Source: Tricharina praecox (taxonomy: Eukaryota). From it: a stretch of DNA of 41,600 bases. Below the pieces are notes generated by a model that did not search any database, was not told where the DNA came from, and saw nothing but the letters and a program-made list of their open reading frames with translations. The stretch spans positions 3,162,001-3,203,600 of the forward strand of contig NW_026250403.1 of the NCBI RefSeq assembly GCF_024521635.1, given 5' to 3'. Positions 3,533 to 41,600 of the stretch are shown here, piece by piece (position 1 is the stretch's first letter; each line of letters starts with the position of its first letter). The translations under genes and the position numbers were made by a program.

Positions 3533-4097
3533 CTCTGATATTCCGCCTCCTCCTCCTCCTCCTACTTCTCCTCCTCCGTGCATCCTTACCGCACCCAAAT
3601 ATCTTGACCCCCCTCCTCCGAAACAGCGACAACGAACCCGAATTCCATCCAACTACCTAGAATTCATAGCGTCACTCTCGGCCATCTCATCCTCTCCGTT
3701 GTCAAGCAAAAAAAAGGGTGAGTTTGAACCCACCCAGCGCTGAACAACCCCCCTCCTCCCTCCCCCCCAGTGCTGCAGTCCTACCGCATCCACCTCACCT
3801 CACCCCACCCATTCCCAACGCACCCACACACTCACTCCCACTCACCCACACACCCTTCCCCTCCAAACAACCCATTACTGAACCTTTTTCTCTCCCACTG
3901 CAGCTCCTGCTTCGACTACAAGTAACACCGATCTGCCCTCCTTCGTCTCTCGACACACATTAGCATCCCGCGCATCTACCCGTCCCTCGATCTCATCAAC
4001 CGAACACCCGATCAACTTCTCCTGAAACCGTACCTGCCGACGGTTACTCAACCTCGACACACGTTGTCACCACACGCACACCACTCTTCCCCAAGGG

Positions 4098-5792: not shown

Positions 5793-5825
5793 GAAGAAGA
5801 AGAAGAAGAAGAAGAAGAAGAAGAA
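5793..5825. repeat. (GAA)11 microsatellite
   Basis: Direct reading. Confidence 0.95.
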
Positions 5826-8505: not shown

Positions 8506-9879
8506 CTAGTACTCGGCAACCCACAGCGCCGCCATTCCCATTCCCGTGCCGATGCACATACTGGTGAGCCCAATCTTCCCCCCGGTGCGCTTCAGCTCCG
8601 TCAACAATGTGCTGACCTGCCGGGCGCCCGTGCACCCCAACGGGTGACCGAAGGCGATGGCACCGCCCTTGGGGTTGATCTTCTTCTGGTCGAGGCCGAG
8701 CTCGTTAGCGCACCACAGACACTGCGACGCAAACGCCTCGTTGATCTCGAAGATGTCGACGTCGTCCTTGCTGATTCCGGTCTTCTCGAAGACCTTTGGG
8801 ATGGAGGCCCAGGGGCCGATACCCATGAGCAGGGGCTCGACACCGGCGACAGCCGCCGTCACAAACTTGCCGACGATCTTCTGTCCGAGCTTTTCTGCGG
8901 TGGAGCGCTTCATCAGGAGCACGGCGGCGGCGCCGTCCGAGATCTGCGACGCGTTGCCAGCATGGATCGAGCCGTCCTTCGCGAACGCGGGGCGGATCTT
9001 TCCGAGCGCCTCAGCGGTCATGCCAGGTCGCACGCCATCATCCTTCGCGACGGTGATGCGGGACTTCTCGCCGGTCTTGGGGTCCTCAAAGTCGACCTCG
9101 AGCGGCCAGATCTCGTCGTTGAACAGCCCGGCCTTCTGCGCCGCCTCGGCCTTCTGATAGCTCGCGGCCGCAAACGCGTCCTGGTCCTTCCGCGCCACGC
9201 CCCGGTCCTTCGCCATCTTCTCCGACAGCACGCCCATCGGCACTTTACAATCCTTTGCCAGCTGCACGCCGTTCAGCAGCTCAGAGAACTCCGACACCGC
9301 GTTGGGGCCGTAGTTATTGCTCATGCTCTCGACGCCGGCGCCGATGCCCACGTCAATAACCCCCGCCATAATCGCCCCCGCAATATCCACACACGCCTGC
9401 AGCCCGGACGAGCACTGGCGATTCGTCGTCTTCACGGCAGTCGACACAGGGAACCCGGCGACAAGCGCGGCAGCACGGAACTCTGTCGCGCCGGCGCCGG
9501 GGGCAAGCACGTTGCCCACGCTGATGTCCTCGACCACCGCGGGGTCGATCCCCGATTTTTGGATTATCCCCTTGAACACGCCCGTGAGCAGGTCCGCCGC
9601 TTGCGTGTCCTTGAACCCGCCACGGCCGCCCTTGGTCAAAGCCGTGCGCAGCGTGCAGGTCACCACGATCTGGGGGGTGTTAGTACGCACGCGCGTATAC
9701 TGGTGGGGGGGAAAACGTACGTCATCGGGGTTCTTCTGGAGTAGCCGGTCGCGTGGTGTGCTGCCTGAGAGCTGCGAGGTCAGGTTGGAGAGGCGGGCGG
9801 TGGCTAAGAGCAGCGAGTCAGTGGCCGTCTAGCCCTCATCGAGTCCATCGCCCAGTCAGCACTTACCGCTAGACATCAT
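8506..9879 (-). CDS. POT1: Peroxisomal 3-ketoacyl-CoA thiolase, about 419 aa; exons 9879-9867, 9803-9721, 9669-8506
   Basis: Thiolase motifs NRQCSSG, NEAFA, GHPLG, CIGTGMG; introns 9866-9804 and 9720-9670; spliced N-terminus MMSSATARLSNLTSQL contains PTS2 RLx5QL. Confidence 0.95.
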
Positions 9880-10623: not shown

Positions 10624-12030
10624 CTAATCCCGTCTACTGAGACTATCTTCATCATCATCGTCCCTGTCTTTCTTCTTCTTTTCGCTGTCATCCTGCAGCA
10701 CCTTCTTCACGCCCTCGTCACCAAGCTCGTCCTTCGACTCGTCCCACTCGACATCGTACTCCGAAGCTACGGCTTTGATCTCCTTCCTCAGCGCCTTCCC
10801 CTGATCCACCAGGTCCTCCCACCGCTCAATGTCGAATCCCTTTTGCGCGTACAGCTTCATCTGCCGCTTGCTGACCGTGATGTGCAGCACGCTGCGGTAG
10901 CTGACCTCTCGATTGTGATACAGGAACCACAAGTAACCCGAGATGACCGTAGTGAGCCCGGCCAAATACGTAACCGGCTCCATGACCTCCCAACCCCACG
11001 AAGTATAAAACGTCGCGAACCAGACAGCGCCCCACCACGTAATCAGTCCTCCAAACCCTGCCATGGCGACATGCTGCGCGCCCCGATGAGCAAGTCTATC
11101 GCACTCCTCCTTCAGATCGCTGTACCGCCGGATCTCTCCGGAAACCGCGCGCAGCCGCTGCCGCAAATACCGCGTCCGGTCGCGGAACGACGGAACCTTG
11201 ACGCTGATCTGCTCGCCGCTCTCGATCTCGATCACGAATTCCTTGCGCTTGCTGGCGTCGCGCACGAAGTCGCCGACTTCCGTGGCCGCGGACCATCGCA
11301 CCATTTGCGCGTCGTCGCTGGCGTCGGGATTGTACGCCCGAAAGGTGATGTCCGGAGGGCGGGTTATGCCGCTCTTCTCGAGAGGTGGGATTTCGGCTTG
11401 GATCAAGCGTTCCATGTACGATAGTGGTTGGCTCGGATGGATCAGCAGGGCCAATGGCTCGTCTGTTGCCGACGATGTGGGATCCGTGTTCTGTGGGCGC
11501 AGTGGGAGTAGGATCTTCAGGAGCCGGGAGGGCGTGGAAACAAGCTCTCCTGTAGATATATCGCATCAGCACCAACTCCCTCCGCAACGACAATGCGACG
11601 ACATACCGCGACGCCCGGGCAAGATAAGATCGCGGTGCTGATAAGACGGTGGCTTATTATCACTATCTCTATGCCACGAGACCGACTGCGCTCTTGCCAA
11701 ACTTTCCACGCTATTCTTCCCGGTCAACTCCGCTTCCGCCTCCTGCTTCCCCTCCTCTTCCTTGAGCCGTTCCTTCTCACTCTTTTCCCCGCCAGTAACG
11801 GGGCCGAACTCGCCGCGCCGCGCGGAAAATACCGAAAAGCATCTTGACTGCGGGCGGAAGGAAAGCGCACTCCGGCCATGAAGAAGAAGACGCAGCGGCT
11901 TTAAGGTTTGCTGTGTGTCGCGTGGGATGCTTATCTGCGAGTGACGTGCCGGGACGCCCGTGAAGCGCACAAGGCCGTTTTGTAGGGGTTTCGAACATAT
12001 CGAGCGTGAAAGAGTGGCCCGCGTCGCCAT
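10624..12030 (-). CDS. mcu: Mitochondrial calcium uniporter, about 449 aa; exons 12030-11607, 11549-10624
   Basis: Arg/Ser-rich presequence-like N-terminus; TPSRLLK and PLALLIHPSQPLSY segments typical of fungal MCU; two TM helices around WGWEVMEPVTYL followed by LYHNREVSY; intron GTATGT..CAG 11606-11550. Confidence 0.92.
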
Positions 12031-16634: not shown

Positions 16635-18424
16635 TCACTCCTTCTTCATCACCACCCCCAGCACGGGGAACTCGAGAGACTCCACCGTGCCGTTCCTCTT
16701 CGTGACCACCAACCTATCCGCCTGCTGTCCATTATACAGCAGCCTTCCGGGCTGTCCCCAGCTGGCACAATCGGAGGCAAAAACGCCCTCGCTTTCCAGC
16801 TCCGGCCTAGGCAGGCCCGGAGTCTCAAAAAGCACCCTCCAAACCTCCTCCTCGGTATCCCCGTCGACAGTCACCAGTTCCGACGGATAGAGCCTAAAAG
16901 TCGTGTTGCTCCCAGGAGAATTCGAGAGCGCCAAGAGGTCGACGCCCCTGCTCAGCCATTTCTCGACGAGCAATCCGTTACCGCCCTCGCCCATCACGAG
17001 CTGGATGGAGCTGTTGCCGGCCGAGAAGTTCCCAGTGTAACCTGTGTCCACGACCTCCAGCCTCGTAGCCTCGTCGACGGCGGGGAAGACGCTCGCGAGC
17101 AGCGCCTCGGCCAGGACGTAGGGCGCCATGCTCACCAGGTCGCCATCGCCGACAAAAATGGCGAAACCAATGTCCGAAGATGGGATCAGTGAGAAGATCG
17201 AACTGTACCCGGGTAGCGCGCCGTCTTTGTTGTAGAGGTCGACGATCCGGATTGGAGAGAGCTTGGAGGTCCGCGTGATCTCCCATGGAAAGCCGACGGC
17301 ACTGTTGATCTCCGAGCCGAAGGTCACAGGTTGCAGCCATTCGTTGATGGTGGCCTGCGGCAGGAGGTCGGAGTCGGAGGACAGGATGGCGCGGAGGAGA
17401 ATGGCCATGTCGTGGGCGGTTGAGTAGGCTCCTCCGCCGCTAGAATAGGCGTTAGATGCATGAAATCGTTGGGTTCAGGGAAGGGATATCTCACGGATTG
17501 TTTGCGCCAAGGTCCGTTGACCAGAGAGCGTCAGGGCTCGGAGGGATCACCATATCTCCCTCGCTAATGGGACTGAATGTGGTGCGGTTCATCCCCATGG
17601 GCGCTGTCAGGTGTTTACGCATAGCGTCTTCAAACGACAGGCCGGTGACGTTACGGACCACATATCCCAGCAGTGCGAAGGCGATATTGGAATATGCCGG
17701 CTTCGAGTGCAAAGGGAATATCGCATGAGAGTTCGACAGACCCTCAACGACCACTGCACCACACCGTATCAATACCGTATCTAATCGCCATCGCAGGGGG
17801 AGGGAGGAGAAACATACACTCCTCAGTACACGGCTCTGGTCGCAGCCCAGCCACTCCACACAGGGAGTATGAATCTGGGTCCTGCGGCGCAAATCCAAAC
17901 TGCTCATACTGTTTTTCCGCCACGTAATCCTCCAAGAAGCCGTAGTTGGCTTGCACGCCGGACATATGACTTCCTAGATCCCTCAAGGTGACACGGTCCC
18001 ACTCGATGGTTCCATTGCCCTCGTTGAGTCCAGGAAGGTACTTCGTAATCTTGTCTCCAAGGTCAAGGTTCAGCCGGAGCAGCAGTAGGTCCGTGAACAC
18101 CTTGCTGACGGATCCGATGCGGTACTGCGAGCTGGCGTTGACCGAGTGCGTACCGTTGGTGGTCGTCTCTGCTGTGTGGTGGTACTCCCACAGCTGGTTG
18201 TGGGCGTCGTTGAGGACGATGGAGAACGAGGTTATGTTCACTTGGAAGCCCGGGTCGATGTCGCCCGCTACGGCAGAGTCCAAGGTGGCGGTCAAGTTCT
18301 TGAGGGCCGTAGAGAGGATCGAAGACCGAACTAAGTCCTTTGGCTGCGGGAGAGTAGGCCCGGGAAGGGGACAAGCTATGACCGCGGTGATTACCAGCGG
18401 GAGAAGTTGGAAAAGGTTGCGCAT
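16635..18424 (-). CDS. Secreted serine beta-lactamase/transpeptidase-like (alkaline D-peptidase-like) protein, about 556 aa; exons 18424-17818, 17753-17495, 17439-16635
   Basis: Signal peptide MRNLFQLLPLVITAVIA; SxxK (IGSVSK), YSN and KDG motifs; LGSHMSG; introns 17817-17754 and 17494-17440. Confidence 0.9.
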
Positions 18425-20929
18425 TGTTACGAGTGCTTTGTTCTTGAGTTCTGTTGGCACCGGATCGTAGTGGAGTTACTGTCCTGGTTTCTGGGAGCAA
18501 GAGCTCAGTTTATAGAAGCCCGAATTGAATACGTAGATGAGAATGGGACACTCGTACAGACGGCGATGTCAAAAGCAATACGCAAGCCCATGACGAGCCC
18601 AGCTTTGCATAGACGTGATTTCCAATGGCAATGCGAGTTGGCAGGACGTACTTGCCAATGGCATTGCGAGTGGAAAGCACGTAGCATACGAGAATTCCAT
18701 TAGGATAACTCGCAATTACGAACACTGGAGTAACATTGGGCCGACCTGGTGTGCCATCGCCGCAACAGAATATGGTTTGCATCGTGTAGTTAGCCTGGGG
18801 CTGAAAATCACGGCGGCGGTCCCCGCGGCTTTGGCCGTTTCTGTGCATCTGCCGTCGACAGCAAGAAAAGAAAGTTACATAACTCAAAATTTATTTTCTG
18901 CAGCTCTGTGGTATAGGTACCGTACGCGTATGACCGGCGACCAAGTAGTTGGCTGCTTTGGGACGATTCCCATGACTTCAACAGGCAGAACGCCTTGCTC
19001 CGCCTCTAGGAAAGGAAGCCATCGAGCCTCATCAAATTTTCTGAAGCGTATATGGTCGATGCCTAGTACGCTCACTCGGAACGGAGACGCAAATATGGTG
19101 GAGTGTATCGGCTGCTGCGCCTCGCATGAAGGTTGTGGGTACGAGGAGCCCAGCGGGGCATTTCGAAGGCAACCTGCCGATCTTTGGTTTCGCCTTGCAG
19201 GGTGACTATCCCGTGTCACGTGCGAGCCAACGAGCACATGGCGTCAAACTTTGGATGCCCGGAGATGTTGGCACGAATCAGGTTCCGCGGCGGCGGTCGA
19301 GACCCAATGCTGTCGGAGGTGAGGAACCTTCGGCCGCACCTCCGTCTGTATACAAAGAGAGATCTCGCCGCCGATGACATCGTTGCTGTATCGAATGGAT
19401 CATCTCTTCCGTCTACCCAAATATGTTCCAACACATAGTTACGAGGAGGCTGAAAAAGAGATACCCTGTGCGCGGCGCCCACGTCGACCGCATCGGTGCT
19501 ACGTAAGAGCATTATTTCGTACGCCGCGAGAGCATCATGGCGATGGCTCGTGGGAAGAATGTTATCCGATGCGATCTGATAAGGGTGGCGCAAGCTAGCT
19601 AGAATGAGACTGAAGAGGGAACCCAACGAAGTGGGTTCATCGTGAGCAATAAGAGGAACTCCTATGTATGAACCACGAGAGCTAGAAAAGATAACCATCT
19701 TTCACCCCATCTTTCACGAGTACGATCTTCACGTACACCACATTATGAATTCTGCTACTTACTAACGAAAGGATCAGGCTCGAATCGATTACATAACTAG
19801 AGTAGGTACTCTCCGAAACCAGACACAGACCAAAGCGCAGAACTCCATCTAACAAATCCTCGAGATGCGATTGTCTGCAAGTTTTATGTGGCGTAAGGAG
19901 TTATGTAGGTGGGGTTGACAGTCGATCACTTACGGAATGTTCCCCGTGACGAAGCTGGCAGCGGAGCGGTGCACGGAATGGAGCCGGACGATCCCTGCAG
20001 CCTTGGGCGTCTGCGCGACCAAAGTGGTGGCCATTAGAGTAGTGGACCCCGTGCCACCGGCCCCACATCCGACGAGGGTCGCGATTCTCGACGAATTCGT
20101 AGGTGAGGGCGTCGGCGAGTCGGTGCGAAGGGGAGTCCATATTGTCCTCGCTTTAGTATGTAGTCGGTGGGATAGATACCGGTCGCGGCTCGCGAGACCA
20201 GAGTCGATGCATGATAGCTTCAAAAATGAGGCAGGAATGAAGGCCTCGACCACCTTTGCTATTTCCAGAATCTCATGATCCGACAAATGGTTACAATCAA
20301 TCCCACATGTTCGACTGCTCGACTGATGGCAGCACTCCGGTTGGAGGAAGAAATAGTGTCCGGTGCATTCGCCTTGATTGTCCATTTCGAATCCTTATCA
20401 ATCCCGGACCTTCTGTAAACGAAGTGAAAGAATGTCAGCGTACGTCAGTTGAAGGAGTAGAGATGCACCGGGGAAGCACATCGGCGGGCCATGCCGAGGT
20501 CGTGGCTGGCTGGCCCCGTTGGAGCCGCAGCAGCCGGTTGGCCTTGCCTTCCCCGCAATGCGTGTCCAGGTTCCGTCGCTAATGCCCCACAGCTCCGTCA
20601 GAGAAGCTGGGCATCGAGAACCTGCATCGATACGTGCGAAGCGGTGCCGAAGTGCAACGCCCTTGCAGATGGCATCCATGGCATTCCGCACCACGGTCCT
20701 ACCGGCCGAATCTGGTTCTACGTGGCCGAGGTCAGGTCGCATCCCCGCGGCTTTTCTCCGGCCCCGACGCGTGGGGAGGGAAGGGAATCGCGTCTCCGTG
20801 AAAGAGCTGGCCGCCTTATTTATCAGGCCTGGGCCCGCTGGGTTCCCAGTCTAATATAGGTTGTCCTTCAGTGCACTTCGTCGCATCCCACGATAACCAA
20901 AGTACCAGCATCCAAATAGATATCCGAAT

Positions 20930-23165
20930 ATGCCTGTCTTCACCGAGGAGTCGTCGCCAGAGATGCTGCAGCGTGCGGCCGGACTCAAGAAACCGCCGCT
21001 ACCCCGTGTCTCGTCGCCAGCACCTGTGAATGTAGACCGGACGGCGGACGGCGCGAAGCATGAGGTGGTGATCATCGGTGTATGTACCAATCCCCTTAGC
21101 AGGACTCAGGAGTAATTCACGGAGCTTGTTGGACTGATATTCTTCTGAACAGACCGGACCGGCGGGAATCATGCTCTCACTGATGCTAGCCCGATATGGC
21201 GTCTCCTGCCTGCCCGTCGAGAAGGTCACCTCGATGATCATTCCCGGGCAAGCCGACGGTCTCCAGCCGCGCACACTCGAAGTCCTGCGCACGCTCGGCC
21301 TTTCGGAGGAGGTCTTCTCTCAGGGCTTCCCGAACCACCGCATGGCGTTCTGGAACCCCGGTGGTCCCGGCGAACCCCGTATCGTCCGAACTGCGGTCAC
21401 CGACGATGTCACCGTTCCTACACGGTACCCGCACAAGGTCTTGCTCGCTGCCGGCAGAGTCGTCAACATCCTCGAAAGACAGATGAACAAGTACGGCAAC
21501 GAGGTGGAGAGAGGGACCGAGTTCTTGAAGTATGAGTTTGTTGGCGGAGAATTTCCCGTCAGGGTGTTCTTGCGGGATGTGGTGACTGGGCGGGAGTACT
21601 CGGTGTTTACCAAGTACCTCGTGGGAGCGGATGGAGCACACTCGAAAGTCCGCGAGCAGATGGGCGTAAAGCTGCAAGGAGGTAAGGAGTCGCCCGGCCA
21701 TTCCAGCCAGTACCAAAACAACTGACTCCGTACAGAGAGTACCGATTACATCTGGGGTGTTGTCGATGCCGTATTAAAAACCGACTTCCCGGACATTCGG
21801 AAGCGCTGCGCCATTCACTCGGATGCCGCATCCATCATGGCTATCCCAAGAGAAATGATCGAAGACCAGCAGTACATGACCCGCCTCTACACGCAGCTCG
21901 AAGACGTCGTCGACGCCACATCGACCGTCGCAAACGCTGCGAGTGAGCAAGAGGCGAAGGCCCGGGCAAGAGAGCGGCGGCAACGTGTGACACTCCCGCG
22001 GATCTTGGATCAGGTGAAGAAAACAATGGCGCCGTACGATGTTGAGGTTGTCAAGGTGGATTGGTGGGGTACATTATTTCTCGCTCTTCCACGATTTGCG
22101 TCCCATGCTGACAGGTGGATAGCCGCATACCAGATCGGCCAGCGTGTAGCAACTAAATTTGCTGTGCAAGACAGCGAAGGCGCTGATCGAGTGTTCATCA
22201 TGGGAGATGCTTGCCATACCCACAGCCCTAAAGCTGGCCAGGGAATGAACGTCAGCATGATGGACGCATTCAACCTTGGTTGGAAGCTTGCTTTCGAGCT
22301 GTTGGGCCTCGCTCCTAAGGGCTCACTTCTGCCCACCTACGAGGTTAGCATTCTAAACCCCCCATCTACCTTCCTCATATTAACAGACGGCCGCAGTTCG
22401 AACGAAGAGATATCGCAGAGCAGCTGATTGCTTTTGACAATGCATTCGCTTCCAAGTTCTCCCAGAAGATGGGAGACGACGGTCTTTCGCACGAGGACTT
22501 CTTCAAGGTCTTCCACACCGGCTGTGGATTCACCAGTGGATGCGGCAGTACGGTGATCCCCATGCACAATAGGATGCGCTAAGCTAACACCCTTTGCAGT
22601 CGAGTATGAGCAGAGCAGCCTTGTCGAAAAGACCCTCGTAAAGGCCCTGGACAACAGCCTCAACCCGGACTTTGGCCTCCTCCGGTCGGGCCGAAGACTG
22701 ATTAACATCCCGGTGCGGCGCTTCTCAGACGACGCACCGTGCGAGTTCCACGACGTCCTCCCGGCGTCCGGGCACTACGTCGTTCTCGTGCTGCTTCCCA
22801 AGTTGTTCAAAGACCCGCGCGTGCAGCAGCAGCTCACCTACCTCACGAGCACGCTCCCGCAGAAGTTTGCGCGCGGCATCCTCGAGCCGTTCATCATCCA
22901 CCCGCTGCGCTCCAACGACGACGTGGAGTGGAACATGTTCCCCAAGGCGCTGAAAGAAGACTGGGAGTGGAACCTTCTCGGCGACGTCAGCGGACAGGGA
23001 TACGAGACGTTCGGCGTCGACAGGGACGCCGGTGTCGTCGCGGTTCTCCGTCCCGACGGCGTGCTCGGCGGCGTGTGGGATATTGACGAGTTGGCGCCCA
23101 AGCGCAGGGTCGAGAGCTATCTCGCGGCCAATCTGTCCGCCCGTGGTACGAAGTCGCTGTTGTAA
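20930..23165 (+). CDS. Phenol 2-monooxygenase-family FAD hydroxylase, about 649 aa; exons 20930-21079, 21153-21681, 21736-22068, 22123-22343, 22397-22547, 22600-23165
   Basis: VVIIGTGPAG, GQADGLQPRTLE, GADGAHSKVR, WGVVD..TDFPDIR, GDACHTHSPKAGQGMN, C-terminal domain with LRPDG; five GT-AG introns. Confidence 0.93.
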
Positions 23166-26835: not shown

Positions 26836-28397
26836 TTACAATCTACTCAACACCGACCTCCTGACTGCCGCGCACATCCGCAAGTCAAACCGCTGATCCA
26901 CCATTTGCACATCCGCACAGCAGCGAGTTTACTCACCTCGCTTGTACTCCTCCGCGAGGACCTCCCAGGCCTTCTCGGCCTCGCCAAACGCATCGTACGC
27001 GAACAGGAACTTCTGGAACACTGGGTCTCTCCACCTGTTTGGGAAGCCCTCGGTGGGGTTGTCCTCAAGCATGATGCGGTCGCGCTCCTGCTGCTTGGCG
27101 CCGTCAGGCAGGTGGAAGACGTTCTGCAGGTCGGTGGAGCCCTGCACCACCGCGGTGGTGCGCGCCTTGCGCAGCCGCTCGTATGAGTCCAGCAGCGGCC
27201 GAAGGTTGTCCTTGTCCGCGGCGGTGACGTGTGCCAGGAGCCCGCCGAGAACGCCGCCGTCCTCGACGGCTTGTGCGGCGCCTTGCGCGAGGTAGGGGAG
27301 TGTCGCGTGGCAGGCGTCGCCGAGCAGGCAGAATTTGCCCTCGGGGTGCACCCAGGAGTCCATCTCCTTGGAGTTCTGTGGCGTTGTTAGGGAGTGCGCT
27401 TTCGCTGGTGGCAGGATGGAATGGAACGTACCTGCAGCTTCCACTTGAACGTCTTCTGCACAAGCTCCAGCAGCTTCTGCAGCCTGATGTCCCAGGTAGC
27501 GAAGATATCCCTCAGCTCCTGGAGGTCGGCATCCTGCTGCGCCATACCCTCGGGCAGGTTGTCGGGGCACACGAGGACAATGTTGTACAACTCGCCTCCC
27601 TTGAGCAGGTAGCAGACCGCGTGCGCACCAGGGCCCATCCAGTAGTTGATGACGGGCACCTCCGTCAACTGCGCCAAATCCGGGTCCTTCTTCATGTCGG
27701 ACGCCTTGACGAGAATGCGGTACGCAAGATCGCCCGTGTTGTGCGGCGGGTCCGCGTGCCCGACGTACAGCTCGCGGCACTTGCTCTTGAGCCCGTCCGC
27801 GGCAACGACGAGGTCGCAAGTCATAGTCACGCCGGTGGCGAGCGTAACGCTCGGGGCCGAGAAGTCGATCTCGTTGACATGGGCGTTGAGCACAACTATG
27901 TCACCCATTAACACAACCCCACCAAAAATCCACAACAAATCATCACATACCCTTAACACCAATCTCCTCCGCCCGCTTGATCATGACGTTGTGGAAGTCG
28001 GCACGGTGAATGTGCAGGTAGGGGGCCTTGTACGTCTCCTCGCAGTACGGCAGCATGGGCTGACGGTTGAGCTCGGGGCCCTTATACGAGCGCATGACGA
28101 ACGCATGCGGGAGCACCGACAGCCGGCGGATCTCCTCGCCGATGCCGAAGCGCTCCAGGATGCGCGCCGAGTTGGGCGGGATCTGGATTCCGGCTCCGAC
28201 CTGTTGTGCAGGAGATTGTCAGCACGGTGGGCGGTTGATTCTGGGGCGGGATAGGTTACCTCGCCGAGTGCCGGTGCTTGCTCGCAGACCGTGACTTGGT
28301 GCCCGGACTGGCGGATTGCGATTGCCGCGGCCAGACCGCCGAGGCCGGCGCCGACGACGATGACGTGCAGGGGGTTCTCCATGATGGGGGCAGACAT
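26836..28397 (-). CDS. Salicylate-hydroxylase-like group A FAD monooxygenase; exons 28397-28260, 28200-27951, 27895-27432, 27375-26937, 26864-26836 (439 aa, ends SRL), or stop at 26929 if the last intron is retained (432 aa)
   Basis: VVGAGLGG, EVGAGIQIPPN, ADGLKS, TGDLAYR, LLGDACHATLPYLAQGAAQAVED; canonical introns. Confidence 0.92.
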
Positions 28398-28950
28398 TGT
28401 TGGCGGGGAGAGGATGTAGGTGCGGGTGAAGACTGTGGGGACGGATCTTCTGATCACTGAGGAACCGAGCAGGCGGAAGGGCAGACGTGGACCGGGAATG
28501 GCTGGCGAGGGCGATGCTTTACTGCTCGTATGATATGTAGGTAGGGAGTTGCTTGCTTGCACTTTGCTGTCTCTATTTCCTGGGAGAGTGTCACAAGGGG
28601 CCGATATGTTATATACGAGAGGGACGTGGAATATATAATTCCATAAATCCGGGGAACGACCGCAACCTTGCGCGTCACTCGCGTTGGTACCTCATGGCGT
28701 CTGTAGCTGCAGCCGGGACATTTACAACTTCAGCCACTCCCCAGGGACTTCTGGCATCGGCATGCGGGGGCGGAGAGGAGGACCTTGGTGGGGCAACTTG
28801 TTGCACCTACCGGGACCGAGGCAAAAAGCGCGGGCCAATCCCTCTTCACGTGACCTGTTCGGAAAAACTCACTATGAAAGTGATATGATTGGTGGAAAAT
28901 TTATCCCCACCCCGCGAAACGCACTGGCTCTGCGGATAGAGGAAGCGTTC

Positions 28951-29122: not shown

Positions 29123-30201
29123 ATGGCGGACAGCAACGACGACCTCAACATCGATGAGCTCTACGCCTTTGCGATTGACCTCTCCAAACGGGCGGGGCAG
29201 CTCCTGGTCGCGGCGACCGAGCAGCGTCGAGCAGCGCAGAACAACAACCATGTTATCTCCTCCACGCAGAAGCTGAACTCGGTCGATTTAGTCACGGAGA
29301 CAGACGAGCGTTCGTTACCCATCATCACCTTCATCAACTCCCATCCCGCACTCGCATGCTGACCATCGTCTACACCACTACAGAGCTCGAGAGCTTCATC
29401 AAATCCGCGATCGAAACCGCCTACCCCACGCACGCCTTCGTCGGCGAGGAGAGCTACTCCAAAGGTTCCTCGCGCGAGTACCTGATCACCCCCGACTCTC
29501 CACCAACATGGTGCATCGACCCGCTCGACGGCACCGTGAACTACGTGCACATGTTCCCCCTGGTGTGCATCAGCATCGCGTTGATCCACCGCGGCGAGCC
29601 CATCGTCGGCGTGATCAACGCGCCGTTCGCACACTCCCTCTTCTCCGGCGCCGTTGGTCTCGGCGCGTGGCTGAACGAGACCACCTCACTACCTCTTCTC
29701 CAGCCACCACCACCACTACCCGCCAACGCCCCGCGCGGCTGCATCTTCTCCTGCGAGTGGGGAAAAGACCGACGGGACGTGCCCGAAGGGAACCTGTACC
29801 GCAAGTCTGAGAGCTTCCTGAACATGGCCGCGGAGTTCGGTGGGAGGGGCGGTAAGGGCGGGATGGTGCACGGCGTGCGGTCTTTGGGGAGCGCAGCGCT
29901 GGACCTGGCATACACCGCCACCGGCGCCTTCGATATCTGGTGGGAGGGCGGCTGCTGGGAGTGGGATGTCGCCGCGGGAATATGCATCCTGCGCGAGGCC
30001 GGTGGGTTAGTGACGAATGGCGCGCCCCCCGAGGATGGCAGTGAGGATGTGGGAGACGTGAGGCTGGGCGGGAGGAGGTACCTTGGTATTCGTGCCGCGG
30101 GCGAGACCGAACTGGAGAGTGCGAGGGACGCACAGCTGCGCGTCGTGCGCGAGGTGTGGCGGCGCGTGGTCCCGCTGGATTACTCCAGGCCGGGAGGCTA
30201 G
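29123..30201 (+). CDS. qutG: Inositol monophosphatase-family protein, QutG/QA-X type, 334 aa; exons 29123-29309, 29384-30201
   Basis: VDLVTETD, GEES, WCIDPLDGTVNY, WEWDVAAG; EWGKDRRD..GN and GGKGGMVHGVRSLGSA inserts recalled from QutG/QA-X; intron 29310-29383; lies near a quinate permease. Confidence 0.88.
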
Positions 30202-31214: not shown

Positions 31215-31615
31215 TCAATTGCCATCCCCACCTACTACTATCCTCCCGGTCCCACCACCGCCACCGCCGCCGCCTCCTCCTCCTCCTCCCATCCACCTAC
31301 TATCATCTACCCGTTGTTCCTCCATCAACGGCGCTCCACCGTCGAAGCCGCCCTCCCTCTCCGCCATCTCGGCTAGCATACTCAGTAGCGGATCACGTTC
31401 CTGCTCGATGATGTTCATATCCTGGACACCTCCATCGTCACCGCCGCTGCCACCGCCGCCCACCGCATCCGGCTGCATATGCTGGAAACCCTGACCAAAG
31501 TCTTCGTACTCGAAGCCGGCGTGGCTGGTGAAATTGGCGACCGAGAGGAACTGCAAGTCCTGCGGTGTGGTGGGCGAGAACGGGTATTCCTCTATATATT
31601 GCTGCTGCTGTGACC

Positions 31616-31646
<31 letters not shown>

Positions 31647-34031
31647 TTGGTGCAAAAGAGATGGTACCGGGTTGTACCCAATAGTGTTCTGCTGCGACTT
31701 CATCGCGGGAATGCCCAGGAATGATCTGGTCACCGGTTAGCCCTGGGGACACCACAGCTAGGAGAGGGATGGTTACAAGTCGGTGTCGTCCTCCGTGGCA
31801 TCGAAGAATGGAACATGGCAAGCCTCGAAGCCTCCGCCCTGCGCAGCATAGCGGTCATAAAAGTCATCGAGGTGAAAGACGCTGGCCGGCCGCCTGTCCG
31901 GAAAATAGGACGACACCAGCTTCTCGTGGCAGTGGTACAGCTTCTTGAGGATGAAGAGCTGCTGCCGCATACAAGCCCAGAACCCCGTTAGCGCTCGGAC
32001 CTGCGTTAACACCGTAACTAAGTTTTCCCGGCACCGACGGAACGCTTCCGATCCCTTGTAGAAGACGCCGTGTACGAGCACGCTAGCAGCGGTCGAGAGA
32101 CAGAAACCGGCAAAGGCGGGCCATTCGATGGCGGGTGTCATTCCGGCGACGGAGATCAGGTCGACAAGCGCGTTCGCATGCTGGAAACAGACTTTCGTCG
32201 CTTCCATCTGCCAGGCTTGTTGTGTGCCGTTGCCGTCCAGCTCGGCGAGGTCGATCGGGAGGAAGTTGCGGTACATCAGACAATGGATCACGTGCCAGAC
32301 GCTGCGGGCGAGAAAGAGGCTGGTCGCGTCGGGAGTCGGGGGAACGCCTTCCCGGAGGTCACGCGAAGAAGCCCATGTGTTGAGTTCGTTGCGGATACGC
32401 GAGAGATTCGAAGATGCATGCCATGGGAAATGGGAGTCTCCCTTCACACCGCCGGACTGTGTGTACCGTATCGTTCGGCCCAGGATACGCACCACATCCA
32501 CGAGAAGATTACTGTTAGAGATCTGCGTACCAAATCCCACGCCAGTTTCGGAGAAGAACGGCGAGTCCGAAGGTATCCCGCGGCGGAACGAGTCCTCGGT
32601 GCACGGAAGACGTAGGTATATCGAGCGATCGGAGAAGCAGGGTGGGCGCACGGAACCGCAAACAGTGAAACGGTCCATGAGATAGCATGTCCAGAAGACA
32701 CGGCGGCGGACTTCTTGCTCGAGATGCGAGGAGGGATGCGTAGACGGAAGTTCCCGGTGGAGGTCGAGCGCGAGGGTCATTCGAATCGCGGAGCCTGATT
32801 GATGTCAGTATGCCGCCACATGCTATGGGGAAGAGTGGAGAACATGCCCATCTGCATGAAGCTCTTCTTGCCGTATCCCATAGCGTAGTATGTCATCGAC
32901 AGCAGCAACATTGACTGTAGATTCTCGAGCGTTGGCTCATCAGAATCCACCTCTCTCCTTGCGCTCGCCGCGAATTCCTCACTGTATTCTTGCGCCGACT
33001 TTATACCCAGTTCGTGGATCGGTGTATATCTATAAACGTTATCATCGAAATATTCCCCCCCTCTCTGTCGCACCCCCGAACCCAACCCACCTCACGGAAA
33101 CGGCGCATAGCGTATTGAGAATATGATGTGGCACCCTTCCCTCAGCCCACTGCTGACGGAACAGGCCCTCGTGAAACAGTGTGTAGGGTTTCCCATTGAC
33201 GCGCTCAAAGAAGACGTCGACGAGCCGTCGTATTAATCGTTCATCCGGTGAAGTGGCCGGAGGTCCTGTGATGACTATGTGTGCTGACGGAGTTATGCTC
33301 GCTGAGGGCGATGGTCCCGAGCCTTCCGGTGAAGATGTCGCTGGCCGTTTCCTCGATGCCACACTGCTAGTATTGCTATTGTCCGCGCCTGGCGAATCGC
33401 GCGTTGGGCCACCTGTAGTTTCCGTGTCGCCCAGCCGCTTCTCCAATCCGTCGATGCGCTTCAGCAGTTCCTCGAGCACTTCTGTTTTCGGCCCACGTTT
33501 CTTGGGCACCGCGTCTACCGGTCTCAGCTCCCTCGATCGCTTTCTTCGTACCCGGGAATGCGGGGGGAATGGGATGGGATATGATGGGATGGGACGGGAT
33601 GGGATGGATGGTAGTACCATAGATGCACTCGCAGCGAAAAACGTCGCAGGCGTTGCATGACGGCCGGGTTCTTGAACATTTGATCTGTATGCGCGGGTGT
33701 AACGATGTCAGCAGGCCGTTGTCCGGTATTTCGCTGCATTTCTCAGCGGTGTGCACTTTCGGAAATGGATGACGGCATCTGTGGCTTGCGCGTTCTGGCT
33801 GGTCCGGTTCCGACTGACCTTGCGTTTACGACAGCTCTTGCAGTTCATGTTTTCGCGCGCCTCGCTCGTGTATCGCCGTGCAGCGGGAAGCTTGGAGATC
33901 GGGAGCGTGCCAGCCGGTTGCTGCTGCTGCGACTGCTGCGACTGCTGCTGCGACTGCTGTTGCGACTGGGGCTGCAGCGATGGCTCCTGGGTTACAGAGC
34001 TGCCGCTGGCGGCAGTGGATGGCCGCGACAT
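31215..34031 (-). CDS. Zn(II)2Cys6 transcription factor with fungal-specific TF domain, about 804 aa; exons 34031-33819, 33684-33618, 33514-33091, 33029-32848, 32794-31777, 31725-31215
   Basis: [40 protein letters not shown]; middle homology region LDLHRE..EVRRRVFWTCYLMDRF; polyQ and polyG in the tail; one GC-AG intron 32847-32795. Confidence 0.9.
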
Positions 34032-37157: not shown

Positions 37158-39059
37158 CTACTTCTCGATGTGCCGCCTACCCGCTTCAAATCCCTCATCC
37201 GCAATCTTCTCCACCGCCTCCTTCGCATCAACGTCCTCCAGCTTCGCCTTATAATCATCTCCGGGCCCATCCCTCCCCGCCTCTTCGCCGGTCCCTCTTT
37301 GCTTCGGCACGCCAAACAGCAAATCCATATTCTCTAGGGTGATTCCCTTCGTCTCTGGCACGTAGAACCAGACCCACACGATCATTGCGATCAAACACCC
37401 ACCGAAGAAAAAATACGTGCCGCCCTTGATGTCGGTGAGCATGTACGGGGTCGCCCTGGCAATGGCGAACTGTCCGAGCCACTGGGTGCACGTAGTGATG
37501 CTGACACACAGACTCCGCAGACGGTTTGGGAAGATCTCGGCGCAGTAGATCCACGGGATCGAGTTCCAGGCGATGCAGAAAAACACCGCGTAGACGTACA
37601 GGCTGACGATGGCGAGCCACGCGGCCGGCGTCTTTTCGCCCGGCGATTGTGGGTCCACCTTTGACGCCGTGATGAAGCTGCCGATGTACAGCATCATCAC
37701 GGCAGCCCCCGACGCGCCGATAAGGAGGAGCTTGCGCCGTCCGAGGCGGTCCACGAGGAATAGCAGCGAGAGAATCGTCGCAGCCGTCTTGATCAGCGCC
37801 CACATGCCGGACGCGAAGAGGCTCACTGATACCCCCGTGAAGCCGATGGAGCGGAAGATGGATGGCTATATGCGGATTTCTTCGGGTCAGCAATCTTGCA
37901 AAACGAGTATTCATTGGGGTGGGGGGGATGGTGGTGCCTATTTACAGAGTAATAGTTAAGCGCATTGATACCGCTAGAATCTCGCAGTCAGTAAGGAAGC
38001 AAAAACCGGAATGCGGCGAACCGGAGGACATACGTCAAGTTCTGGCAGATCATCAACATCATTCCCAACCCCAGCCGGTTGCGATTTCCCTTCCAGCAGA
38101 GCTCGCGCATCATCTTGAGCTTCGACGGTGCCTGCACCAAGTCGCGGTCAACCTGCTCCTGCATCGCCCGCAGCTCGTTGATGATGTACTCGTGATCGGC
38201 GGGGAGCTGTCTCAGCCACGTCAAAGTCTTGAGTGCCTTCTCCGGCCTGAATTTCTTGATATGGAACCTGGGGCTCTCGGGGAGGACGAAGACGCTCGCG
38301 AGGAAGAGCAGGCCGCCTGGGATCAGCTGAATACCCAGCGCGAGCATCCACTGACTCTGGGACTCGGGCATAGAGCTGAGCACGGCGAAGTTCGCCCAGA
38401 ACCCCACGAGTGATGCAAACTGCCCCCCGATCTCCCACATACCGACGAGGAAGCCGCGGATGTCCGGCGGCGAGATCTCGCTAATGTACATGGGTACCAG
38501 AAGCGATACCGAACCGACGCCGAGTCCGCCAATGAAACGTCCCGCGTACATCATCGGCAAAGAGCCGTAGGAAAATGTCTGGGTACCACACGCAACCGTC
38601 AGCCGACTGCTTCCCGCCTCCGTTTGTAATGCGGCTGCGTTCGCTCAGCTGCGCGAGGGCGGCGAGGAGAAGTGACAGCCGCATAAACAAAGCAGAATAA
38701 AATCTTCCGGGGGTTCACTCATATCGCACCATTATCAAAGACCCCAGGAAAAACATCAGCGAAGCAATAGTGAGCGAGAACCTCCGGCCAATCTTCTCCG
38801 TGATTGGGAAAGTTCCCATGGAGCCGAAGAACGCGCCGCCCTGCATGGCGGAGACAATGTTTGCCGCGACATAACTGTACTCGGCGGTATTCAGAGGCGC
38901 CAGGTTGAAGTCCCGGTGGAACGATGGGAGCGCGATGCAGCCCCCGATCACCCCAATGTTATAGCCAAACACTAGCGAGCCCGCACAGGCACAGACCCCC
39001 GTGAAGTATACTAAAATAACCGTGCCGGAGATGGGGCCGTCTGTTAATCCGGATGACAT
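37158..39059 (-). CDS. qutD: MFS sugar-porter-family transporter, quinate permease-like, about 536 aa; exons 39059-38730, 38578-38034, 37973-37946, 37865-37158
   Basis: FGYNIGVIGG..LPSF, GRR loops, YISEISPPDIRG, PESPR, QNLTGINALNYYSPSIFRSIG, WNSIPWIYCAEIF, PETKG; divergent from a dehydroshikimate dehydratase; the substrate is inferred. Confidence 0.82.
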
Positions 39060-40081
39060 GCCATGACATCGTCCAAGACGGTACGGGCGTTGACAGCGCG
39101 GGGCAGGACAGGGCGGAACGAAGACTTACTCCGCCAGTTGTAGACCTCTTTGGGCGTAGTCATGTTTGCCATAATTCCTCCGGCGGCCGTGCTAGGTACG
39201 ACGGTATCGAATGGTGCCGCTTAATCAATGTACGTACGGTAGTGGTAGATAGTGGGTGTGTCGCGCCGCGTTTCGAGCGGAGAAATATTATACCTCCGGA
39301 CGTGAGGAGAAGACTCAATCAAGATGGGAGGGGGATTTTTTTTTTTTGCGTAGTAGTGGTTTTCTTGACGGAAGAGATTTGTGGACCTGCGCCCATGGGC
39401 CCATTCACATACACCTCGACTTCGGGATAGTATTTTCCCGGATTTACACTGAAAAGCTATTGGAGAGGGTAGATACACTGGGTGGCCCTGCCTTTACTGA
39501 AGTAGCTGCAGCATAGCTGCATTTTATGGAATAGAGACGAATGGAGACGAAGGGAGACGAATGGAGACACGCAGTAAGATTATAAATTAAGCATTTGGGC
39601 CGGCCATCGCCAGTACACTCTTTACATAGCCCTAAACCCTCACCATGTGGTCGGTATGACACATGTGAGTTGGGGGGGAAACACCGGGAGATCCCCATGT
39701 AACCACATGACCGGCACGTTTATTCGCCAGCCCGAGTATCGACTCAGCATTGCGGTTCGTCAGCCGTGATTCGTGGAATCAAAGCGTCGCAGTTTGCCGA
39801 CCCCACACTTTGCTGTACCCCATGTCGGGCGAGCCTATCGTTTATCCGGTTCGTGCGAGCCAGATCCTGCGGCGGCGGGCGGGCTCACACACACACGCGG
39901 TGGGTACCGTAGGTAGCATAGGTAGGGTCGCGCTCACCCACCCAACCCAACCCCAGAAAAGTCGGTGATTTATTGGAACCCAGCCAGCCCAGCACGCAGC
40001 CACCTCTAACTATCGGATCGGTGTTTGGGACCATTCGTATATATTGATCCTTTCCTTCGGTCCCGCATTTCGCGAAACGTT

Positions 40082-40099
40082 GGATAAACGCGGTTATCC
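40082..40099. promoter_or_regulatory. Palindromic GGATAA-N6-TTATCC element resembling a quinate-activator (QA-1F) site
   Basis: GGATAAACGCGGTTATCC in the permease/dehydratase divergent promoter; related half-sites on the minus strand at 39839-39848 and 39717-39726. Confidence 0.5.
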
Positions 40100-40305
40100 G
40101 AGCGCGCCAGTTTTTTTCCCGTCATCGGCTCCCCACCCCCCCTACCCGAGGCAGCTGAATACCTGTCACCGGACGGCGCACTCGAAAGCCGCGAAACTGA
40201 AGTCAGCTTTCGTACAGCTCCCTCCTGCTCCTCCTTCCTCCTCCTCCTACGTATCGTAACATCGCCGACACGTAACCTCAAGACCCCCCACTACACACGG
40301 TCGCA

Positions 40306-41600
40306 ATGAATCTCGTCTCGAAGACTACCGGAGCGCAGCGCAAGCCCGTACTGCCGCACCGGACATCGATAGCGACGGTATGCGTTTCGGGGCACCTCCT
40401 CGACAAGCTGACGGCGATCGCCGAGGCGGGCTTCGACGGTGTCGAGATCTTTGAGAACGACCTGTTGCACTACCCAGGCTCGCGTCAGGATATCTACAAT
40501 GTGTGTCAGGAGCTCGGGTTGAAGATTGAGATGTACCAGCCCTTCAGGGACCTGGAGGGTGCGGCTACGCCGGAGGAGTTGAAGCGCAGTCTGGATAGAC
40601 TCGAGAGAAAGTTTCAGTGGATGGATGAGCTCCATACAGACCTGATATTGCTGTGCTCGAATTGCTCTCCAAGCTCGGTAAGTGGAGTTCATGGTTCCCC
40701 GCCTTTCGAGAATTAATGCATGGATGAATGCTTATGCCGTGGACTCTACAGGTGGGCGACAGAGACAGGCTGGTATCGGATCTGAGGGCAGCGGCCGAAC
40801 TTGCGGCAAAATACAACAAGCGGATAGCGTACGAGGCTCTGGCATGGGGACTTCACGTTTACACATGGGAGTACTCGTGGGAGCTCGTGAAGGAAGTAGA
40901 CCACCCCAACCTTGGTATCTGCTTCGACACATTCCACATATTCTCGCGACAAGGTGATATCAACGCCATTGCCGATGTCCCCGCAGAGAAGATTTTCTTC
41001 GTGCAGTTGGCGGATGCTCCGATTCTCAAAATGGATCATCTGAGCTATTCCCGGCATCACCGGAACTATCCCCTTCAAGGAGCCTTCCCCATCATTCCAT
41101 TCATGGAAAAGCTGATACAGACCGGCTACATCGGGCCGCTGTCGCTCGAGATCTTCAACGACGAGTTCCGCGCTGCTCCAGCAAAGAGAATCGCCCAAGA
41201 TGGTCTGAGGAGCTTGCTGTACTTGCAATCAGAGTTGTATCACGGATCCATCCTGCCTCCATTACCGGAGGTGGAGCGGATAGAGTACGTGGAGTTTGCA
41301 GTCGACGAGGCGCGGATTGGGCAGCTCGAAGCCTTCTTCCTAGATATGGGATTGAACAAAGTTGGAAAGCATCGGTCAAAGAATGTGACATTATATCGCC
41401 AAGGTGGGTTTGCTTTTTTTCTCCCGATTTTCACTGGATCTTCTGACGCTCATGTGCTTTTAGGTGGCGTCTCGTTTATTGTGAATGCCGAGCCGGAATC
41501 GTTTGCTTCTGCATTCTTGCTTTTACACGACACATCCGTCTGTGCGATCGCCGTACGGGTAAAGGATATTCCGGCAGCGGTCGACCGGGCCGCGTGCCTT
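40306..41600 (+). CDS. quiC1: 3-dehydroshikimate dehydratase of bacterial QuiC1/QsuB type (AP-endonuclease-2 TIM barrel fused to an HPPD-like domain), cut off by the window end; exons 40306-40677, 40752-41403, 41464->41600
   Basis: SIATVCVSG..GFDGVEIFENDL..YQPFRDLEG; IAYEALAWG; DTFH; KIFFVQLADAP; SRHHRNYPLQG; GPLSLEIFNDEFRAA; then EYVEFAVD..GKHRSKNVTLYRQG..VNAEPESFA..SVCAIAVRV; introns 40678-40751 and 41404-41463. Confidence 0.88.

Follow-up and report, generated by a model that had tools for sequence, protein, structure and literature searches.

The stretch of DNA examined here, 41,600 nucleotides (nt) of the Tricharina praecox genome (assembly GCF_024521635.1, contig NW_026250403.1, positions 3,162,001 to 3,203,600 of the forward strand) and hereafter called the window, ends within a gene whose first exons read like a bacterial enzyme of quinate catabolism. 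The question raised by this locus is what such an enzyme is joined to in an intron-bearing fungal gene, and what the joined protein might do. We found that positions 40306-41600 hold the 5' portion, approximately 30%, of a gene for one protein of 1289 amino acids (aa). Its N-terminal half is predicted to be a 3-dehydroshikimate dehydratase (DSD) of the QuiC1/QsuB type, and its C-terminal half appears to be a GaaX-type repressor module derived from the AROM protein. We lean towards reading the product as an enzyme-repressor chimera. The original prediction, made from the letters of the window, had placed a bacterial-type fused DSD at this site; the fusion to a repressor-type module, which is the main feature of the gene, was absent from its account.

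The gene structure was read directly from the window and set beside spliced contigs from two public runs, X1 and X2, belonging to two studies. The following parts lie in the window.

39961 to 40305, + strand: 5' untranslated region covered by spliced contigs, the pieces of which start at 39961 (X1) and 39988 (X2)
40306 to 40677, + strand: exon 1, 124 codons, encoding the opening portion of the DSD TIM barrel (PF01261 at residues 36-118)
40678 to 40751, + strand: intron 1, 74 nt, GTAAGT..CAG, skipped in one contig each of X1 and X2
40752 to 41403, + strand: exon 2, remainder of the TIM barrel (holding 8 of the 10 active-site residues), then a linker and the first part of the HPPD-like domain
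41404 to 41463, + strand: intron 2, 60 nt, GTGGGT..TAG, in frame and without a stop, skipped in X1 and X2
41464 to 41600, + strand: start of exon 3, HPPD-like domain, continuing approximately 902 codons past the window end

The ATG at 40306 is the first of the open frame, and the contigs cannot fix the true transcript start. They skip precisely 74 and 60 bases, with GT..AG ends and 0 differing letters. The library type of both runs is not on record; the same runs also skip the four introns of the divergent transporter gene described below, and because all six introns are precisely absent from the contigs, the runs were read as complementary DNA (cDNA)-like. The original prediction had proposed two GT-AG introns and a TIM barrel running into a second, HPPD-like domain in one frame, and this was borne out by the direct reading, by Pfam and by the skipping contigs; the strings that it quoted (EYVEFAVDE, GKHRSKNVTLYRQGGVSFIVNAEPESFA and SVCAIAVRVKD) are present in the spliced frame. 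It was also right that the frame runs off the window, which it does for approximately 900 more codons and into further domains.

Inside the window the spliced frame runs for 387 codons without a stop. The remainder was taken from P0001, which the search listing gives as the window's own protein, a 1193-codon prokaryote-style call that begins at a Met inside the protein and does not remove intron 2. Joining the spliced part of the window to this call gave the full product of 1289 aa. Past the window end the gene goes on to encode the remainder of the HPPD-like domain, a linker, a dehydroquinase of type I and an apparently dead shikimate dehydrogenase-like domain. The contigs are 4444 and 4356 nt long and extend 2938 and 2877 nt past the window end; the former extension equals the remaining 2709 coding nt plus approximately 229 nt, and the contig therefore has room for the whole open reading frame (ORF).

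Relatives of the protein were sought in protein searches, each listing its best 120 or 150 matches, and proteins of 709-2258 aa were checked for a DSD half together with the type I dehydroquinase family PF01487. The protein search with exon 2 returned four close relatives of 1289-1319 aa, namely a JGI protein (90% identity), Sphaerosporella brunnea (88%), Geopyxis carbonaria (79%) and Rhizina undulata (76%), which places the source among the Pezizales. Among the matches listed, the fusion was encountered in Pezizales (Sphaerosporella, Geopyxis, Rhizina and Kalaharituber), in Orbiliomycetes (Orbilia, Drechslerella, Dactylella and Dactylellina), in Saitoella complicata of the Taphrinomycotina and in unnamed metagenome sequences, and named proteins from 9 species share this domain order. 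The fungal contig L081, from a soil metagenome, has the fused gene at 3869-7849, broken up by three stop-containing insertions (33-36 nt, in frame) that resemble unusually short introns. The insertion at the junction of the two halves (5816-5851, 36 nt) has GT..AG ends and a CTAAC box, and its removal restores the alignment. The two intron positions of the window's gene differ from the three of L081. A candidate cluster of stand-alone enzymes (P0035/P0489, 640-672 aa) was examined and rejected, as it proved fungal and fused, with both halves in one frame on L081.

We sought to characterize each half of the protein. In the N-terminal half (approximately residues 1-635) a xylose-isomerase-like TIM barrel comes first and an HPPD-like (VOC) domain second, in colinear order. 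Pfam reported PF01261 on exon 1 (E 7.7e-9) and on exon 2 (E 1.1e-30; residues 3-155), and PF14696 (HPPD_N) on the end of exon 2 (4.6e-8; residues 176-217) and on exon 3 (1.1e-8). The three exon pieces are colinear on the NCBIfam QuiC model NF042435, at model positions 3-104, 107-337 and 340-381 of 635, and P0003, a fused protein from Pezizales, covers positions 3-627 of 635 colinearly with 660 bits. The equivalog cut-off of this model (1200 bits) was missed by P0003 (660), by Orbilia (566) and Saitoella (503), and also by the nearest bacterial relative, P0006 (779); the model is narrower than the two-domain DSD family. Residues 20-634 of P0003 align to residues 5-629 of PDB entry 5HMQ (E 5e-169).

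The section of PMC7442255 dealing with QuiC1/QsuB gives the active site as R64, L97, E134, L136, D165, H168, Q191, S206, R210 and E239, and a kcat of 61-164 per s. When these residues were transferred via the alignment to 5HMQ, the window's protein, four other Pezizales, two Orbiliales and P0035 proved to carry all ten, and Saitoella nine; each is kept in 90-102 of 110 bacterial rows. On its sequence, the N-terminal half is predicted to be a two-domain 3-dehydroshikimate dehydratase of the QuiC1/QsuB type. The single-domain QutC/QA-4 format, a stand-alone barrel of approximately 350 aa, was not matched, since the barrel here is continued by an HPPD-like domain and others. The original prediction of a bacterial QuiC1/QsuB-type architecture in an intron-bearing fungal gene thus agrees with the colinear NF042435 match and with the DSD classes as set out in the consulted part of PMC7442255.

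The C-terminal half was examined next. In 5/5 Pezizales proteins the Pfam domain order is PF01261, PF14696/PF00903 and PF01487, with approximately 140 residues without a family match between the HPPD-like domain and the dehydroquinase and approximately 280 C-terminal residues without a Pfam match. The dehydroquinase is of type I (PF01487), and P0003 scores 170.8 bits on the aroD model TIGR01093 against a cut-off of 139.3. Residues 772-1281 of P0003 align to the dehydroquinase and shikimate dehydrogenase part of AROM (PDB 5SWV chain C, E 4e-76). The roles of the dehydroquinase residues (Schiff-base Lys, catalytic His, and substrate-binding Glu, Arg and Gln) are those of Salmonella AroD. All eight of them (E, R, R, E, H, K, R, Q) are present in the window's protein, and 11/13 fused rows carry the complete set. 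For the shikimate dehydrogenase-like domain we looked for what we take to be the motifs of shikimate/quinate dehydrogenases, a catalytic Lys (NVTxPxK), an Asp (NTD) and a Gly-rich NAD(P) loop. All three are gone in 40/40 rows except for one Lys in L081, and the window's protein has T, T and S-N-S at these positions, so that the domain is judged to be catalytically dead.

One divergent lineage of Pezizales has lost both active sites together. In Kalaharituber pfeilii (P0434) and a metagenome sequence (P0414) the DSD site carries changes such as E134H, H168Q and Q191Y, and the dehydroquinase His and Lys have become Cys and Arg. Both catalytic sets are gone, and the protein is retained at 1277-1457 aa.

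Residues 640-1290 of P0003 share 43-50% identity, over their whole length, with an ascomycete family of approximately 715 aa. At least 94% of the query was covered in the named rows of this family, and its members came from Aspergillus, Penicillium, Dothideomycetes, Sordariomycetes and other higher Pezizomycotina, in both cases among the matches listed. Pfam sees PF01487 only in this family, and many of its database models are merged with a downstream, same-strand Zn2Cys6 gene. The excerpts of PMC10512348 consulted list QutR/QutX, GaaX, TanX and NRRL3_07605 as the AROM-like repressors of Aspergillus niger, and describe PF01487 as the sole recognised domain in GaaX only and a head-to-tail gene arrangement in gaaR/gaaX only. 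Because only GaaX fits the two traits of a lone PF01487 match and merging with the factor gene, the family was read as GaaX. The residue pattern agrees with this reading. The loss-of-function changes of GaaX reported in part of PMC6528562 affect V653, L676 and V684, and that account stresses the 'last 45 residues'. A V-23-L-8-V pattern, with the first Val 44-46 residues from the C-terminus, was found in 6/9 Eurotiales rows, the other three being Aspergillus fumigatus rows without it. Equivalents of the same V/L/V residues are present in the window's protein and in 11/13 fused rows, and the C-terminal tail (LVGQxVPFDFVRMASGR) is conserved. We infer that the family corresponds to GaaX and that the C-terminal half (approximately 640-1289) is its orthologue. 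No QutR-named protein was found among the best 120 matches to this half, and an Atlas search with it returned generic names only.

Dozens of NCBI models from Aspergillus and Dothideomycetes (P0167-P0233 and the like), of 1370-1800 aa, combine PF01487 with PF00172 and PF04082, and these are probably merged calls of two same-strand neighbours. The stand-alone family (P0132-P0235) keeps all eight dehydroquinase residues in 27/27 rows, and its shikimate dehydrogenase-like domain is dead by the same signs. One would not expect so complete a dehydroquinase set in repressors that are described as catalytically inactive.

A repressor of this kind would require an activator, and one candidate is encoded in the window.

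~31350 to 33900, - strand: Zn2Cys6 / Fungal_trans factor gene (PF04082), candidate activator partner, 6 kb upstream of the fusion gene

The factor shares 34-45% identity, in long tblastn segments, with the factor halves of 8 merged GaaX-like-plus-factor models, and its 343-aa exon shares 44-47% with the factor halves of such models. A complex model of this one exon with residues 544-1193 of P0001, built as a single-sequence prediction, scored 0.81 compared to 0.00 for the best of 3 controls; the score mark is reached by 51/78 solved complexes and by 2/108 mismatched pairs. Agreement between the runs extends to at least 88% of contacts, and the predicted local distance difference test score (pLDDT) of the partner is at least 79. 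On the factor side the interface is formed by residues 120-131 (GGVKGDSHFPWH) and 193-200, which are mostly invariant among 19 factor sequences. On the partner side it comprises residues 692-697, 740, 891-892, 932-943 and the extreme C-terminus, 1186-1193 (numbered in P0001), including the invariant L692, I697, P891, L892, K939, E943 and A1187, with other invariant residues in flanking positions. To our knowledge no like complex is known. The model supports binding of the C-terminal half to the factor encoded 6 kb upstream.

The factor-side interface was also compared with a known mutation. According to part of PMC6528562, the change W361R renders A. niger GaaR insensitive to GaaX. The Trp of GGVKGDSHFPWH lies 377-380 residues before the C-terminus in 4/20 merged models, where 379 would be expected, and 391 residues before it in 5/20; in P0167 it lies 224 residues into the Fungal_trans match. 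Both the C-terminal distance in the four models and the position in P0167 put the residue at approximately 361-363 of the 740-aa GaaR, which is consistent with its being the equivalent of W361.

The chimera that we favour would work as follows. The dehydroquinase and DSD domains would convert 3-dehydroquinate to 3-dehydroshikimate and then to protocatechuate, and the C-terminal half would hold the Zn2Cys6 activator inactive. A pathway intermediate in the dehydroquinase-like site would then free the activator, as has been proposed for QutR/QutA and GaaX/GaaR. As to its origin, the DSD half may have passed from a bacterium into an early ascomycete and then have been fused to the AROM-derived module. 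A later loss of this half, at the base of the higher Pezizomycotina, would have left the stand-alone repressor of approximately 715 aa. The data establish the exon structure and its splicing, a contig that can take the whole ORF, the order of the domains, the kept residues and a common, congruent descent of both halves in early-diverging ascomycetes; all of the functions are inferences.

The protein could also be a catabolic enzyme and nothing else, that is, a bifunctional dehydroquinase and DSD with a vestigial shikimate dehydrogenase domain and without any part in regulation. Its catalytic sets are both complete, and the aroD model is matched above its cut-off; fusions of consecutive shikimate-pathway steps are common, as in AROM and the plant dehydroquinase-shikimate dehydrogenase (DHQ-SDH) among the PDB matches; and on L081 a gene of the shikimate/quinate dehydrogenase family adjoins the fused gene. 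We nevertheless regard this as unlikely. The C-terminal half, including the dead domain and the tail needed for GaaX repression, is conserved along its whole length with the repressor family, the lineage of Kalaharituber and P0414 retains the protein without either catalytic set, and the complex model supports factor binding via invariant motifs.

More doubtful still is the converse, that the protein is a regulator throughout, in which the DSD and dehydroquinase-like sites do no more than sense ligands and other genes of the genome supply the actual enzymes of the pathway. It draws on the stand-alone family, known as a repressor via GaaX in the consulted part of PMC6528562, which keeps the dehydroquinase residues in 27/27 rows, and on a proposal by Hawkins and colleagues, cited in that same part, that QutR binds its ligand without turnover. 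However, the retention of 10/10 DSD residues across a divergence as deep as that of Pezizomycetes and Orbiliomycetes is more easily explained by catalysis, and the loss of both sites together in one lineage fits coupled activities.

We assessed the history of the two halves through separate trees. A tree of the C-terminal half (40 rows, LG+C20+F+G4, without an outgroup) parted 27 stand-alone from 13 fused rows by one split with 100/100 support. For the DSD half, a 53-row mixture-model tree and a 123-row quick tree (LG+G4) were made, and in the former the 10 fungal rows formed one clade, again with 100/100 support. The same internal groups were found in the trees of both halves, namely a cluster of Saitoella and L081, the Pyronemataceae-like Pezizales, the Orbiliales and the Kalaharituber lineage. 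From these matching groups it follows that the DSD and the C-terminal half travelled together, along the ascomycete classes, and one fusion or one fission would be enough for the distribution.

The fungal DSD clade joins between two bacterial groups and inside no named one. The first group comprises a clade of Acetobacteraceae/Azospirillaceae (with one Cupriavidus row) together with P0348 and P0386, and the second everything else. Under midpoint rooting the fungi fell within bacteria in the 123-row tree, and the root fell on the fungal stem in the 53-row mixture-model tree; because of this shift, no nesting of fungi in bacteria is claimed. Over the full DSD half, identity to Pezizales is 51% for Orbiliales, 46% for Saitoella and 46-50% (at most 49.6%) for the best bacteria. 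The best non-fungal matches to exon 2 reach 54-55% identity, and the labelled relatives are Acetobacteraceae and Azospirillaceae. In the library, 5887 representatives match the DSD half at E<=0.001, and only 4 were identified as eukaryotic among the matches listed (P0130, P0434, P0414 and P0138). With so few eukaryotic members in so large a family, an ancient bacterial origin of the DSD half is the most economical and likeliest reading, of which the tree alone is no proof; a recent transfer into Pezizales is not supported by these comparisons.

The original prediction had proposed a different history, in which a QuiC1-like gene passed from a bacterium to the fungal lineage itself, gained introns later, came to lie beside a quinate permease and possibly took the place of the native qutC. 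In its favour, the great majority of the family is bacterial, the 54-55% exon 2 matches have relatives among Acetobacteraceae/Azospirillaceae, and the intron positions differ from those of L081, as expected for gain after acquisition. We consider such a lineage-specific event very unlikely, as the DSD is already fused in Orbiliomycetes and Saitoella, whose identities of 51%, 51% and 46% compare with at most 49.6% for bacteria; as the 100/100 fungal clade has internal groups that mirror the tree of the C-terminal half; and as this clade is not nested in the alphaproteobacterial one. What stands of the proposed transfer is an ancient bacterial origin, which fits the distribution best, and what falls is an event confined to one lineage, given the fused DSD of Pezizales, Orbiliomycetes and Saitoella in a single clade. 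A broadly and vertically inherited fusion, branching outside the bacterial clades, had been named as an outcome that would speak against the proposal, and the tree and the fungal survey came close to it, with the fungal clade outside the named bacterial groups and the fusion spread across ascomycete classes.

That adjacent DSD and repressor genes were misread as one is hardly credible: many database models of the family are indeed mis-merged with the neighbouring factor gene and the raw L081 frame has a stop between the halves, but the 1193-codon ORF of the window's gene crosses the junction unbroken, the same order recurs in named proteins of 9 species among the matches listed, spliced contigs of 4.4 kb span the 5' part with room for the whole ORF, and the L081 stop sits in the 36-nt GT..AG insertion with its CTAAC box, the removal of which restores the alignment.

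Several points weigh against the enzyme-repressor chimera. Activity, binding and regulation in the fused clade are drawn from sequence and from a model, and the C-terminal 902 residues were taken from P0001, encoded by DNA outside the window. The GaaX identification was made by exclusion and from a residue pattern, without an authentic reference sequence, and the tree of the C-terminal half, lacking an outgroup, cannot formally show orthology. Since the stand-alone family keeps the dehydroquinase set in 27/27 rows, the conserved residues are no proof of catalysis. GaaX itself responds to 2-keto-3-deoxy-L-galactonate and not to a quinate intermediate, according to part of PMC6528562. The complex model is a single-sequence prediction with one factor exon, so that a pass counts as support and not as binding, and the W361 mapping is built on distances, with 5/20 models at 391. 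Finally, the DSD trees fix neither a root nor the direction in which the gene passed.

A further and tentative proposal, which we hold to be possible, is that the fused protein is a natural 'trigger enzyme' representing the ancestral state of GaaX-type repressors. A bacterial two-domain DSD would have been joined, in an early ascomycete, to an AROM-derived dehydroquinase that was still catalytic and also bound the Zn2Cys6 activator of the pathway. The enzyme would sense the flux of the dehydroquinate and dehydroshikimate that it consumes, and GaaX would have arisen later, in higher ascomycetes, by loss of the DSD and re-tuning of the Schiff-base site to 2-keto-3-deoxy-L-galactonate. If so, the 'inactive' AROM-like repressors would not simply be dead enzymes.

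The chimera, as favoured here, was compared with known systems. Relative to QuiC1 of Pseudomonas putida (5HMQ) and QsuB of Corynebacterium glutamicum, the window's protein has the same domain order, all 10 active-site residues and the HPPD-like domain; unlike them it is eukaryotic and encoded with introns, falls below the NF042435 cut-off (660 compared to 1200 bits) and adds an AROM-like module of 650 residues that is found in no characterised bacterial DSD. It resembles the GaaX family in the C-terminal half (43-50% whole-length identity, PF01487 only, a dead shikimate dehydrogenase domain and a conserved tail) and in having a Zn2Cys6 factor gene nearby (~31350-33900 on the - strand in the window; directly upstream on L081). 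It differs from GaaX in the DSD of 640 residues in front, in a factor gene that is divergent and 6 kb off instead of head-to-tail, and in neighbours that suggest aromatic or quinate metabolism and not pectin use. Identical dehydroquinase residues are shared with domains 4-5 of AROM (Aro1), whereas the shikimate dehydrogenase catalytic residues and the NADP loop are lost and the other three AROM domains are absent.

QutR/QA-1S (QutX in A. niger) is described, in the consulted parts of PMC12610400 and PMC6528562, as derived from the C-terminal domains of AROM and is proposed to hold QutA/QA-1F inactive until an intermediate of the quinate pathway binds. The window's protein has the same kind of module, and its DSD half belongs to the same pathway. 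Unlike it, QutR is not fused to an enzyme and has Pfam shikimate kinase, dehydroquinase and shikimate dehydrogenase matches, as given in part of PMC10512348, where the fusion protein has the dehydroquinase only. With QutC/QA-4/DsdA the DSD half shares the predicted reaction and the TIM-barrel superfamily, and the cluster of a QutC-type DSD includes a permease and an activator-repressor pair, according to part of PMC12610400. The two are set apart by class description, QutC falling under the 'fungal single-domain' class of PMC7442255 as excerpted and the window's protein under the 'bacterial two-domain' class.

A literature search found no description of a fungal two-domain DSD or of a DSD-repressor fusion, and the database names of the fused proteins are 'hypothetical' or 'VOC domain-containing'. 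In the passages of PMC7442255 consulted, which cite Peek et al. 2017, two-domain DSDs are classed as bacterial and fungal DSDs as single-domain, a classification that the present distribution corrects. The AROM-like repressors are described as stand-alone proteins in the consulted portions of PMC10512348, PMC12610400 and PMC6528562, and their mechanism is called unknown in those of PMC10512348 and PMC6528562. The QutA/QutR, GaaR/GaaX and TanR/TanX modules govern the use of plant acids and have been engineered for enzyme production, and both the sensing of inducers by AROM-like repressors and the origin of these repressors from enzymes are still unsettled. Here a putative repressor is covalently tied to an apparently active, bacterial-type catabolic enzyme, and the GaaX-like family as a whole keeps a complete type I dehydroquinase active site. 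The interest of the locus is more in this fusion and in the origin of GaaX-type repressors than in gene transfer. It also offers a testable system with one polypeptide, one neighbouring factor and defined candidate ligands, in which turnover and Schiff-base capture can be compared as the means of activator release.

The remaining features of the window are as follows.

37158 to 39172, - strand: MFS (Sugar_tr) transporter gene, 534 aa in 5 exons, with PF00083 on three exons, four CT..AC joints and an open frame
40082 to 40099, no strand assigned: perfect palindrome GGATAA-N6-TTATCC, 207 bp upstream of the fusion ATG and inside the contig-covered region
29179 to 30201, + strand: inositol monophosphatase-family gene (PF00459, E 1.1e-60)
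26929 to 28691, - strand: FAD-dependent monooxygenase gene of the aromatic hydroxylase type (PF01494 and Rossmann-type FAD-binding families)
21726 to 22427, + strand: second FAD-dependent monooxygenase gene of the aromatic hydroxylase type
8506 to 9828, - strand: thiolase gene, unrelated to the fusion gene
10624 to 11565, - strand: mitochondrial calcium uniporter (MCU) family gene, unrelated to the fusion gene
16635 to 18475, - strand: beta-lactamase-family gene, unrelated to the fusion gene

The transporter gene is divergent from the fusion gene, with its ATG at 39172, 1133 bp from the fusion ATG. The original prediction had placed the DSD head-to-head with a quinate permease; the divergent MFS transporter, a 534-aa Sugar_tr protein, is there, and 'quinate' stays a putative label for it, as an Atlas search with it returned generic MFS names only. 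A micro-exon of 28 nt (37946-37973, - strand) lies in this gene between introns of 80 and 60 nt, as seen in the X1 contig and with the same two joints in X2. The inositol monophosphatase family is, we presume, that of A. nidulans qutG. On L081, the fused gene is directly preceded by a shikimate dehydrogenase-family ORF (PF08501, 88-1005) and by a Fungal_trans ORF (1957-2799), so that this locus would join a candidate quinate/shikimate dehydrogenase with a dehydroquinase domain and a DSD.

The palindrome in the promoter resembles what we take to be the QA-1F site, GGATAA-N4-TTATCC, with a different spacing. It has 1 match in the window and at least 1 in 2/100 shuffles, the pattern having been picked after it was sighted, and no GGATAA-N(2-8)-TTATCC palindrome was found in L081. 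It may serve as a lead to a site of the Zn2Cys6 factor. The presumed GaaR site, CCNCCAA, was uninformative, with 36 copies in the window compared to 25 expected and one copy in the shared promoter.

Other arrangements and hosts of the DSD were also encountered. EukProt records a 788-aa two-domain DSD (P0248) under the dinoflagellate Durusdinium trenchii. Its neighbour in the tree is a bacterial representative, at a great distance from the fungi, and it represents either contamination or an independent acquisition. Ten TIM-only relatives at approximately 50% identity were named Streptomyces or carried no name, and among them there was no sign of a stand-alone fungal DSD descendant. Bacterial long-form DSDs carry additions other than the AROM-like module, such as alcohol dehydrogenase domains or a TetR domain. 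Of the long forms encountered here, which stem from unnamed metagenome or run assemblies, several of P0237-P0242 join a two-domain DSD to alcohol dehydrogenase domains (PF00107 and PF08240; approximately 955 aa), and P0236 joins one to TetR-type regulator domains (PF00440 and PF17938; 841 aa). All of these long forms fall among bacterial rows in the 123-row tree, and the TetR-fused DSD would be a bacterial parallel of an enzyme-regulator fusion unless it is a gene-calling artefact. In A. niger, the DSD paralogue NRRL3_07603, barely expressed according to part of PMC12610400, would by its number adjoin the uncharacterised activator-repressor module NRRL3_07604/07605, a possible second case of a DSD linked with an AROM-like repressor.

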